The notes under the pieces were generated by a model, which was given only the letters and a program-made list of their open reading frames with translations, was not told where the DNA came from and made no database searches. Shown piece by piece: positions 13,890 through 18,026 of a stretch of DNA of 64,000 nucleotides. Position numbers and translations under genes: made by a program. The first letter of the stretch is position 1, and the number at the start of each line of letters is the position of its first letter. The stretch covers positions 124,001 to 188,000 of the forward strand of contig JAPEUI010000014.1 of assembly GCA_026025075.1 (NCBI GenBank). The letters are read 5' to 3'. The stretch is from Vezdaea acicularis (taxonomy: Eukaryota).

Positions 13890-16800
13890 CTAGTACGCTA
13901 CCCGTGTCCGCATATCCTAAGGCAACGTTAGGGAAGGCTTCATTGAGAATAGACCATTCCATTCTTCACTTACCGACACCTTTCGCTCAATCTCCCTTAC
14001 AGACCGATCCAGTTCGCCAGCAATCATCTGCTTTTTGTCGGATGGTAGAAGCGCGAACCGTTCGCACACTGTATCGGAAGTCAGTTTTGATGCTGCGTCC
14101 TTTTACTTTCGAAAAATACGGTTCCTTTAGAAGGCACTCACAATCCCCGTCAATGACACCCTTTACGGGTACATAATAGCTACGGTATGCCAGATGGTCC
14201 CGACCTGCTAATGGTGCATCCTCACTCCTCAGATGTTGCTCCAGCGTCTGGAAAAAATCTACGTCTTCTCTTCCGACAAACGGCACCAGCACGCCCAGCG
14301 TCCCCTGCAGGCCACTCCAAAGCAGGACGTCTCTCCCACCAGCCACAAGTTGCGTCTTCTGCAAACTCGTTGGAATATCTTGAGGGAAGAAATGTATCAT
14401 CAGACTCAACCTATTCGGCGCTCCTTGCAGATACTGTCTCTCGTGCGCGAGATGAGCACCAGATCCCTCTTCGTCGGCTTCCTCCGATGCTTTTGTTGGG
14501 CACCGCAATAGCCAGAGGTTCCCGAATTTGTCGCCGCCGGCCACGGTTTCATAATCAACCATCGTGGTGCATGTTGTCCACCGTGCAAGACTATCATCGG
14601 CAAAGGGAATGAGCATATTCTCCTGAAATTTGTATACGACGAAAGTCACGCTTTCCTGGACGTCCGAAACGATGATGCGGGAGCCTTGTGTTAGCAACCC
14701 AACGATAACGTTAGGTGCCGCTTGCGTTTGTGCTTTGCGAAGGAGTTGGCGCATCCCAAGGTCATAGATACGGAGGTCCTTGCCGACGCCAGCAAGGAGG
14801 CGGCCTTGAAAGGCGAGTAGAGCAAGAGGCGGCTCTTCGACTTTCGTTTTATGGATGAATTCGAGCTCCTTGCCGTCCTCTTGAAAGCGGTAAACGTGAA
14901 TAAAGCCTGCAGAGGAGGATCGCGGCGTAGCAATCATGTCTTTGCCAGTACCAACGACCAGAAAAGTTTCATCTTCCTGACTGGAAAACGGGACGACAGC
15001 GAGGGAAACTGCGGCCTCGTTGTCTTCAAGATCGACTCGTTGAAGAACTTCTTTTGCAGAAATGGGATCGATAATCTGGATACAGGATGCCCAGTGACCC
15101 GTACCGCGAGGATACCCGAAGTCTTCAGGCGGCAGAGATGCGGCATCTCCATTCACCACAGACGGATCAGTCAACAATCGATTTCTTGTAGACTGTGAGA
15201 GGACATTGTTGTCTGCTTCGATAACGTAGAAGAGGGGCTGTTCAGGATGCTTGACAAATCGTCGTGGGGTGTATGCTAAAGGTATCGTTTCTTGGAGTAG
15301 GTTTTCGGTGAGTTTCTCAATTGAGAATATCCTATTTAACACAATAGTTTAGTAAACATTCATCATGAATATATGAAACAGTTGGATGAAACAATGGGAT
15401 GGAGTGTCTTCAGAAGGAACAATTGAAATAAGGATTTTGATCCGCAGAGTGTACAATAGGAACCTCGGTTTAGCGAGTGAATCTTTATCATCATAGACAA
15501 CCTCTAAGGAAGGAGGCCGCAGCACATAAGAGGGTTAAAAAAGAGGAGCTAACCGTAGATTTTGCCCCTGTATGCCAACCATCCCTTCTAAGCACTGTTC
15601 ACTACTAAAATTCCACCCCCACTCTAAGCCTACGTAGCTCAGGGGTGTAAGCATGAAGCCTTTGGTTTGAGGATCAGAGTATCCGAGCCAAGGGCGCGAA
15701 CTAAGAGCCAAAACTGCTGTTTGCCCCTTGACGGATACTCGAAAAAGCTTTGCAGGCTTAGGGCCTAGGAAGCGTGTCCGAGTGTCCGATAACTCCCCTG
15801 TGATTTCATCAAGGACTGTACGCAGGTATACGCCGGAGTAAAGCCCAATGTGGAGGTAGAGTGTTGATCCACCGGAAGAGGAGTCGGCCATAGCCATGAT
15901 TGAAAGCGCTGAAGGTGCAGAGGAAAGCGCTTGGACAGACTTGTTTTCCAGCGTTGAGTCCGGGTCTAAGCTCAGAATTCGCACTGTAGAATCATCGCAA
16001 CCGACCGCCAGGAACGGGCTTCTCACGCGGCCTTCAGGTACCTCTCCTAGGCTGAGACAAGTGACTGTCCCACTCATTTCTTTTCTCTCGTCGTACTCGG
16101 CGAGGGAGCCATCAGAGTCCATTTCGAAATACACGATCTCACCCGAACTTAGCGCAACGGCGACCTGCCGCTGATTTGTTGTAGCTGCAACGATGGAACG
16201 ATGTTGTGGCGCCGGCCATTCATTCACTCGCCCGTTCTTCATATGCCTTATACCCCTAGGATGGACCTGCACTAGACCGTCCTCGCCCAGTTGCTGGACC
16301 GCCAATGTTGGCGCTGACGAGAGAAACCCAGTGTCCGTAACCTCCTCGACGGTCTCTCCTATGCTCAGCACCAGTGTGCCATTCGAAAAAGAAAGAACTA
16401 TGTACGCGTCAAACTCATCGGCTTTAGAGAGTTTGGTGGTCCAAACGGCCGACGGAACACCTGGTAATTCCGATTCAACTATTTCCGAGACTTCAAGCCC
16501 ATGGCGGAGAGTTCTGAAGCTGCTTCGTGCGCCAGTCCCACATATTGAGTAGATTTGAGGTGCGTCATCATCCGTTAGGTTTGCAACCTTGCAGTCCATA
16601 AGTGGATTCATAGAATCTATGCTCTCTACTAGGTTGACGTTTTCCGAAGGCCGCGGGTGAAAGTATACTGGTGTGTATGGCTCAGTTGGATCGGCCGGGA
16701 AGGAATCGCTATTAAACTCGGTTTCGTCTTCATCGTCGGCGAGTTTCTCAAACTGATAGAAATGGTGGTTTCCAGTCTCGCTTGCAACGAACAAGAAGCC

Positions 16801-18026
16801 GCTTTTTAAAATACACAAGCTTGACGCTACCGGCACTGTGTCAAAATACTTGATCTTCAGACGCTTTACTTCTCCTGTGGATTGTCCGTTCTCGTCCTCG
16901 ACCATCTCTAGCGTAACTTTGAACAAGTCGCCGTCTTCGCTTTGCAGCAAAAAGAAAAAGGCTCCCTTCATTTTGTGCATTACACCAGCGGTGATGGTTC
17001 GCTTTCTCTTAGGATCTTCAGTCGCACCCCTTCGACGAGGAATGGCAACCCGGAACGCCTCTTGATTGGAATGTCGGTATGTGATATTATCTTCTCCACA
17101 TACCAAAACCCCACTCGGCCCATCTGCCCCGCCGGGGACTTGGTAAAGGACTGATGCAGTACGGTCAACAGGTTCCGACCACTTCCGAACAACGTGATTG
17201 AGACCTAGATCTAACTCATAGTAAACTAAGAGCTTCTCAATCTCGTCGAAAGCTTCACCAGTTGGATCCTGGTCGGAGTCTCCATAATCAATCTCCAGCG
17301 CTGCGAAGATCGGATTTTCATAACCGACATCTAACGCAGCCATCGCAAAGACCAGGGTTTGAGGTTTGTGCGCCTCCAGAGGAGAGGAGATTGTGAGCTC
17401 CGCCTGAGCATTTCGATTGAGCACATAAACTAGCTTATTTTTCTCCACGGACGCAATGAGACATGCCCGTCCCTTCGGGTCCACCACGAGGTATTGACCT
17501 GGAATGACTCTCCGAACTCCAGATTTGCCAAATGTTTCGAGGTGAAGTCTATTAAACTTATTTTGGGATGGCACATATTCGATAATCGTAATGCGGCCAG
17601 AATCAGACCCTATAATAATGTAATCTACACCAAAGACTCAGCGTGATGTTCTCCAATTGATCTCATCATCCAACGGCGCTGAGCTCGAGACCTGAGCTGG
17701 CCGCACATATGGTCGCACTGCCGGCCAGACTTGACGAATCACTAAGTGAAGCTTTTGGGTGTGTGCAAAGGAGACAGCTAACCTTTATTGCTCCCTGCCA
17801 ACCTGAACGCCGCAAGCGTGCGGATGATACCAAAAAACTCATGAACAAGCGTTGTGGTGACCTTGCCCTGGACGGGATCTGGTCGGTGTAAGGTCAAGCG
17901 CGACCCTGAAGCCGTTACAATTTGCTGTTCCTTGGTACCAGCGAATTGGCCGAGGATAGCTTGAGTAACTGCTGACGATGGCTGAACTGTGAGCGAGTAC
18001 ATGAACATCGACGAAGTGGTCGCCAT
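13890..18026 (-). CDS. RSE1: Pre-mRNA splicing factor Rse1 / SF3B3 (U2 snRNP SF3b subunit)
   Basis: Exons about 18026-17783, 17624-15554, 15331-14142, 14068-13974, 13916-13890. Motifs [64 protein letters not shown], and end DMRTRVAY*. Confidence 0.97.
15405..15499 (-). ncRNA. Intronic box C/D snoRNA, putative guide for 18S rRNA Am541-equivalent (snR41/SNORD62-type)
   Basis: Inside the 222-nt RSE1 intron 2 (15332-15553) the sense strand reads TGTCT-ATGATGA (box C)...CCGA (D'?)...TTTCAATTGTTCCTT-CTGA (box D)-AGACA, with a 5-bp terminal stem. The guide is complementary to the conserved 18S segment AGGAACAAUUGGA. Confidence 0.85.

Follow-up and report, generated by a model that had tools for sequence, protein, structure and literature searches.

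The 64,000-nucleotide (nt) segment of the Vezdaea acicularis genome analyzed here (contig JAPEUI010000014.1, positions 124,001 to 188,000 of the forward strand; hereafter referred to as the window) carries a box C/D small nucleolar RNA (snoRNA) within the second intron of RSE1/SF3B3, the predicted gene for subunit 3 of the splicing factor SF3b. It is highly probable that this unit is a functional, intron-encoded guide for A541-type methylation of 18S rRNA, from a family that is the functional counterpart of human U62. This reading is based on (i) the architecture of the sequence, (ii) homology to a cloned snoRNA, (iii) the conserved position of the intron and (iv) selective constraint.

Inspection of the minus strand placed the two boxes, the guide, the closing stem and the whole 95-nt extent (terminal stem included) exactly where they had been located in an earlier note prepared from the nucleotide sequence alone (Table 1). 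The 5-bp terminal stem immediately flanks boxes C and D, which are separated by an interior of 74 nt, the last bases of which (UUUCAAUUGUUCCUU) abut box D. The D′ box is degenerate (CCGA or CCTA), and the C′-like sequence UGCGGA is conserved across 65 aligned sequences of the family (alignment A1). The 16-mer CAATTGTTCCTTCTGA, spanning guide and box D, has a single exact occurrence in the window, and 0.02 matches are expected by chance at ≤2 mismatches. Folding of the unit with ViennaRNA produced the terminal stem and two small hairpins; the stability of the fold as a whole was no better than that of shuffled sequences (z = +1.47), in keeping with the unpaired antisense regions of a guide RNA.

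Table 1. Features of the snoRNA unit and of its host gene (window coordinates; X5 is a related contig described in the text)
Feature	Position	Strand	Basis or remarks
Box C/D snoRNA	15405..15499	-	boxes, stem, family alignment A1, comparison with X5
Terminal stem, 5′ half (TGTCT)	15499-15495	-	pairs with AGACA 15409-15405
Box C, AUGAUGA (ATGATGA)	15494-15488	-	sequence reading; identical in the X5 contig
Candidate D′ box, CCGA	15468-15465	-	alignment to relatives with CCGA, CCTA or CTGA; assignment uncertain
Alternative D′ candidate, CCTA	15460-15457	-	alignment; assignment uncertain
C′-like box, UGCGGA	15446-15441	-	conservation in family alignment A1
D-guide, 15 nt, antisense to 18S GAGGAACAAUUGGAG	15428-15414	-	hand pairing; identical in the X5 contig
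Box D, CUGA (CTGA)	15413-15410	-	sequence reading
Terminal stem, 3′ half (AGACA)	15409-15405	-	pairs with TGTCT
RSE1/SF3B3 (SF3b subunit 3) gene	13890..18026	-	translations, sequence reading, Pfam, PDB matches
RSE1 intron 1	17782-17625	-	158 nt
RSE1 intron 2 (host intron)	15553-15332	-	222 nt
RSE1 intron 3	14141-14069	-	73 nt
RSE1 intron 4	13973-13917	-	57 nt

The guide was paired with 18S rRNA by hand, using two printed sequences: the duplex of Neurospora crassa CD13, in which the guide is paired with 18S 3′-GGUUAACAAGGAG-5′ (PMC2780460, Additional file 4), and a yeast 18S probe, which gives the wider context of the target as TACCTTAACGAGGAACAATTGGAGGGCAAGTC (PMC8044721). It forms 15 consecutive pairs with GAGGAACAAUUGGAG, 12 of them Watson-Crick and three G-U. 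Counting five bases upstream from box D leads to guide base 15418, which faces the first A following GAGG in GAGGAACAAUUGG, the predicted target; both the pairing and the target position proposed in the earlier note are borne out by this duplex.

The closest described relative of the unit among the sequences compared is Nc CD13 (GenBank EU780937), reported by Liu et al. (2009) as an 84-nt intronic box C/D snoRNA from a cDNA library, with 18S-Am538 as the predicted target of its D guide (PMC2780460, Table 1). The same source names as its homologs S. pombe snR41-I, S. cerevisiae snR41, plant snR41Y and human U62A/B, and gives a sequence that starts with AUGAUGAUAAA and finishes with CCAAUUGUUCCUUCUGA (Additional file 1). 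Nc CD13 and the window unit share (i) the guide and box D, CAAUUGUUCCUUCUGA (16 nt), (ii) the 11 nt of the 5′ end, AUGAUGAUAAA, (iii) a UUCCUA motif, (iv) an intronic location and (v) the predicted 18S target adenosine. The two differ in size (the 84-nt cDNA versus 95 nt with the stem), in their diverged interiors, in the C′ box (UGAUGA in Nc CD13, UGCGGA in the window) and in the first guide base past the shared core, which is C in Nc CD13 and U, forming a G-U pair, in the window. As judged from these sequences, the V. acicularis unit is an ortholog of Nc CD13 and a member of the fungal CD13/snR41-I family. The host gene of Nc CD13 is not named in the main text or the seven supplements of PMC2780460.

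The gene that harbors the unit extends from an ATG at 18026 to a TAG stop codon (13892-13890). Within its predicted product, Pfam recognized the first and second beta-propellers of RSE1 (RSE1/DDB1/CPSF1 type) as well as CPSF_A. Among solved structures the best match was Chaetomium thermophilum SF3b subunit (E = 0), followed by human SF3B3 (2e-256), with weaker matches to yeast Rse1 (7.6e-64) and DDB1 (only ~1e-27). These domains and the ranking of the structures identify the putative host protein as the ortholog of SF3B3/Rse1 (SF3b subunit 3), in agreement with the gene name originally assigned.

Intron 2 begins with the 5′ splice site GTTAGC (15553-15548) and ends with AATAG, the 3′ splice AG being located at 15333-15332. 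It interrupts an Arg codon; the residues encoded before it are ...QGQNL(R) and those after it IFSIEKL, and the flanking reading frames join. The 5′ splice site is separated from box C by 59 nt, and the end of box D from the 3′ splice site by 78 nt; a sequence resembling a branch site (CTAAAC, 15352-15347) is found ~60 nt beyond box D. The length of 222 nt and the distance of about 80 nt to the 3′ splice site given in the earlier note were thus confirmed by measurement. Its statement that most introns here comprise 50-70 nt fits, as far as RSE1 is concerned, two of the three other introns (73 and 57 nt), but not intron 1 (158 nt). The snoRNA content explains why intron 2 is the longest intron of RSE1.

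Relatives of the unit were collected by scanning metagenome contigs for the pattern TGATGA-N40-70-CAATTGTTCCTNCTGA with 3-kb flanks, which yielded at least 118 loci (long flanks were available for 80), and RSE1 neighbors were called by tblastn with the two large RSE1 exons of the window. All counts of loci and introns in this and the following paragraphs refer to the matches listed. RSE1 coding sequence adjoins the snoRNA, on the same strand, in 76 of the 118 loci. Both neighboring exons are present in 74 of these, and the downstream exon only in two (L044 and L108). Of the 74 two-exon loci, 72 have GT..AG borders at a codon position that matches intron 2 of the window exactly; a comparison of orthologous introns had been suggested in the earlier note. 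The identity of the RSE1 exons to the window protein ranges from 44 to 94%. Sixty-four introns remained for measurement after the removal of duplicates. Their median length is 186 nt (range 126-211 nt; window, 222 nt), with a median of 40 nt from the 5′ splice site to box C (25-63 nt; window, 59 nt), 65 nt from box D to the 3′ splice site (35-78 nt; window, 78 nt) and 54 nt from box D to the last CTRA motif, a putative branch site (window, ~60 nt). The processing of such snoRNAs depends on the distance to the 3′ splice site, according to the N. crassa study (PMC2780460), and the narrow spacing observed in the relatives fits this dependence.

The taxonomic placing of the metagenome loci relies on bit scores to the Chaetomium versus the human protein only. 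By this measure, the exons of L001 (57% identical to the window; 838 versus 633 bits) and L066 (1040 versus 714 bits) are closer to the Chaetomium protein, and that of L029, from an intron-rich group, scores nearly equally with both (178 versus 176 bits), which suggests that this group falls outside the Ascomycota. Starting 83 nt before the snoRNA, locus L044 is 100% identical to L078, and it carries unrelated sequence where RSE1 exon 2 is expected; the L044 contig is probably chimeric or rearranged.

Several lines of evidence are independent of the search pattern, namely the host gene and exact intron position, the C′-like box, the terminal stems and a relative found without the pattern. In alignment A1, the window unit can be matched from end to end to relatives, among them L082 and L084. 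Within the C′-like box, every one of the 65 aligned sequences has the T and G found at 15446-15445, and no fewer than 90% have the G at 15442; none of these positions was required by the pattern. Most relatives read UGAGGA here, compared with UGCGGA in the window. Terminal stems of at least four contiguous pairs can be formed by 66% of the 65 unique sequences, versus 30% when flanks are swapped between loci, and stems of at least five pairs by 42%, versus 11% in the same control. Interiors similar to that of CD13 were found within RSE1 in seven loci (L014, L062, L064, L086, L091, L104 and L116).

The relative that was detected by shared words, and not by the box and guide pattern, is an 18-kb contig (X5) spanning the full 701-nt test stretch with 36 substitutions. 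These are distributed as follows: 3/247 in exon 2, 9/54 (plus one indel) in the 5′ intron flank, 5/95 in the snoRNA, 12/73 in the 3′ intron flank and 7/231 in exon 3. The snoRNA has therefore changed less than the flanking intron (5/95 versus 21/127; Fisher p = 0.011). The five changes occupy snoRNA positions 5, 45, 47, 66 and 69, leaving boxes C and D, the guide, the C′-like box and positions 13-44 intact. With the first of them the innermost pair of the stem is lost, and a change at 15500 creates a new outer G-C pair. In a distant contig of a further sequencing run (X9), exon 3 (~79% alike) is followed by 101 intron letters that cannot be aligned, and the guide with box D (21 nt) is kept with one change; another X9 contig is 97% alike.

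A second ATGATGA (15372-15366, minus strand) lies in the same intron ~30 nt past the snoRNA, with no box D before the splice site. One of its bases is altered in X5, in which the adjacent position 15374 also differs, and we read it as a chance motif.

A further motif, UCGUUAA, was observed between box C and the D′-like box in ten loci (L008, L015, L037, L045, L059, L082, L084, L096, L101 and L112), with the variant UCGUUGA in L082 and L112, and also in seven loci without RSE1 (L011, L047, L060, L067, L075, L087 and L100). It is complementary to 18S UUAACGA, which directly borders the D-guide target on its 5′ side in the yeast probe (PMC8044721). The equivalent in the window, CUCGCUAAA, can form 7/8 pairs, with one A-C mismatch and a 3-nt overlap with the D-guide target. 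This D′-side motif may provide extra base-pairing that aids the same methylation.

In S. cerevisiae, the equivalent position, Am541 (95% modified), is assigned to snR41, as is Gm1126 (Yang et al. 2016, PMC5199042). Unlike this double guide, the window unit matches only the A541 half, and N. crassa has a separate snoRNA, CD9, for the corresponding G1122 (PMC2780460); the window RNA therefore represents the A541 half of snR41. The designation "snR41-type guide" in the earlier note consequently holds for the A541 target, through the match to Nc CD13 and the homologs listed for it, and does not extend to the Gm1126 half. The origin of yeast snR41 from a polycistronic cluster, also mentioned there, is documented in print (snR41-snR70-snR51; PMC3596301) and differs from the location within an intron of a protein-coding gene seen here. 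The spliceosomal host that had been set against this cluster is correct as well, but it is not peculiar to V. acicularis, as RSE1 is the host in 76 of the 118 loci.

Human SNORD62A/B (U62) is given as the human homolog of Nc CD13 (PMC2780460). Rfam revealed no sequence similarity between it and the window unit. The host gene of SNORD62A/B is different from that of the window unit. Human SF3B3, the ortholog of the host gene, contains box C/D snoRNAs in two introns, SNORD111A and SNORD111B, which have another guide target, 28S G3923 (PMC6124571). Retention of a snoRNA at one host intron position across many fungi has been described for RPL7/snR59 and NOG2/snR191 (Lim et al. 2021, PMC8476143); their hosts are ribosome-biogenesis genes, whereas the host considered here is a component of the spliceosome. 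The S. pombe SF3B3 gene, prp12, is absent from the PomBase list of genes with intronic noncoding RNAs, in the form in which that list is copied in Table S8 of PMC8476143.

Release by exonucleolytic trimming of the spliced, debranched intron is the textbook route for intronic box C/D snoRNAs. By this route, the snoRNA would be transcribed within the RSE1/SF3B3 pre-mRNA, and its production would depend on splicing of the host transcript. Snu13, Nop56, Nop58 and Nop1/fibrillarin would come together on the kink-turn of boxes C and D, which the TGTCT/AGACA stem closes, and, following splicing and debranching, exonucleases would trim the intron to a protected 95-nt particle. In the nucleolus, the 15-nt D-guide is predicted to pair with 18S GAGGAACAAUUGGAG, and fibrillarin would add a 2′-O-methyl group to the A that faces the fifth guide base, corresponding to yeast A541 and N. 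crassa A538. In N. crassa, 45 of the 55 box C/D snoRNAs are intronic, with one per intron (PMC2780460).

Copies outside RSE1 were examined with a profile built from the RSE1-hosted set, which sorted the 42 loci without RSE1 into two classes. Fifteen of them score ≤22.8 bits, most being situated in long open reading frames, several of which encode bacterial-type Pfam domains; these look like chance matches. The other 27 score ≥25.4 bits and resemble the same snoRNA in other contexts, so that ~76 of 103 family-like matches are hosted by RSE1. The presence of family-like copies elsewhere indicates that the snoRNA has moved or been duplicated in some lineages. An amino-acid permease reading frame lies upstream of several of these copies (L031, L040, L047, L060, L067, L075 and L100), one copy is adjacent to a Nop10 exon (L114, with similar snoRNAs in L012, L024 and L098) and one precedes the C-terminal exon of RTG2 (L022); the remaining ones sit in sequence without a recognized gene. 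The snoRNA of L051 and L063 is almost identical to that of the RSE1-hosted L021, with no RSE1 nearby.

Several observations weigh against a functional guide. No Rfam family matched at its gathering score in the whole window, and no model, including those of snR41 and SNORD62 recommended for this purpose in the earlier note, matched in the 15200-15700 region at E values up to 10; the unit is consequently placed in the fungal CD13 family only, and not in the Rfam snR41/SNORD62 families. In the metagenome loci, box C, guide and box D were prescribed by the search pattern, so that their conservation there is not independent evidence. About one-third of the relatives have fewer than four contiguous stem pairs. 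In a fixed register the stem signal is weak, because the register differs between lineages (41.9% of cells paired versus 37.0% in shuffles, with 2/500 shuffles reaching this level); slid registers give similar scores. The differences found in another contig, X6, are the same as those of X5, so that it does not constitute a second independent comparison. Finally, we infer the 18S target in V. acicularis from the N. crassa and yeast 18S sequences, and the expression, processing route and methylation in this species from its DNA.

Three other explanations of the unit were considered. Boxes C and D are short, the long, AT-rich intron contains a stray ATGATGA and a GATGATGA...CTGA pair is present in intron 1, all of which might point to a chance assembly of short motifs. 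This explanation is effectively refuted already by the exact 16-mer in common with Nc CD13 (0.02 matches expected at ≤2 mismatches), by similarity over the whole length to relatives in the same intron and by the constraint relative to the flanking intron, and we assign it almost no probability. It is very unlikely that the unit is an inactive or decaying relic whose guiding function is performed by another genomic copy: the family does move or duplicate, as the ~27 of 42 similar loci outside RSE1 demonstrate, but the boxes, stem and guide are all intact in the window, and in X5 the snoRNA has changed three-fold less than the flanking intron, with no change in functional elements.

Equally hard to credit is a role mainly in cis on the RSE1 pre-mRNA, either as a structured element or as an intronic ribonucleoprotein that tunes splicing, with the rRNA match being secondary. 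Such a role would be consistent with the occurrence of the unit in the same RSE1 intron in 76 loci, at RSE1 identities down to ~44-50%, and with a conserved block that is also borne by RSE1 intron 1. The guide is, however, identical to that of a cloned trans-acting snoRNA, Nc CD13, and the family-like copies located elsewhere show that the RNA does not need RSE1 as a host.

The block in intron 1 occupies positions 17705-17745 (minus strand), ~35 nt after the 5′ splice site. It reads CTTCACTTAGTGATTCGTCAAGTCTGG..GCAG in the window and TTAGTGATTC(T)TGAAGYATGG..GGCAGCTCG in the relatives, and was seen in most RSE1 relatives for which the upstream flank is available, including groups of 54-68% protein identity (L021, L025, L057, L074 and L066); it was not seen in the intron-rich group, L001 or L076. 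The block holds the adjacent stop triplets TAG TGA; it could act as a stop cassette when the intron is retained in the transcript, regulate splicing or be bound by a protein. A snoRNA in intron 1 was rejected, since GATGATGA and CTGA of the window are only 21 nt apart; this CTGA is the branch-site motif, which in the relatives precedes the 3′ splice site by 12-20 nt.

The family, its target and its intronic habit have already been published, and the snoRNA of V. acicularis is a new member. A statement that RSE1 is a conserved host was not found in full-text literature searches or in the texts on N. crassa, Aspergillus fumigatus and the fungal snoRNAome (the supplements of the last, possibly with genomic contexts, lay outside this coverage). 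Neither snR41 nor RSE1 nor host genes come up in the main text on the fungal snoRNAome, and the table of the A. fumigatus cDNA screen contains no guide for this 18S site.

The intron splits the same Arg codon position throughout, and the RSE1-hosted loci include the intron-rich group that is about equidistant from ascomycete and human SF3B3. A bolder proposal is that the A541 guide has been locked in one SF3B3 intron since before major fungal lineages split, and has been kept there by a coupling of spliceosome supply to ribosome modification, or by feedback of the intronic ribonucleoprotein on splicing of the SF3b transcript; the snoRNAs of human SF3B3 would then be more than a coincidence. 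We regard this proposal as improbable.

With respect to annotation, the outcome is one additional, real snoRNA gene, which escapes the Rfam library. The guide occupies the same RSE1/SF3B3 intron in many fungi, and represents a further long-lived pairing of a snoRNA with its host, with a spliceosome gene in place of a ribosome-biogenesis gene. This pairing offers a simple system for asking whether such associations are selected or merely inherited.

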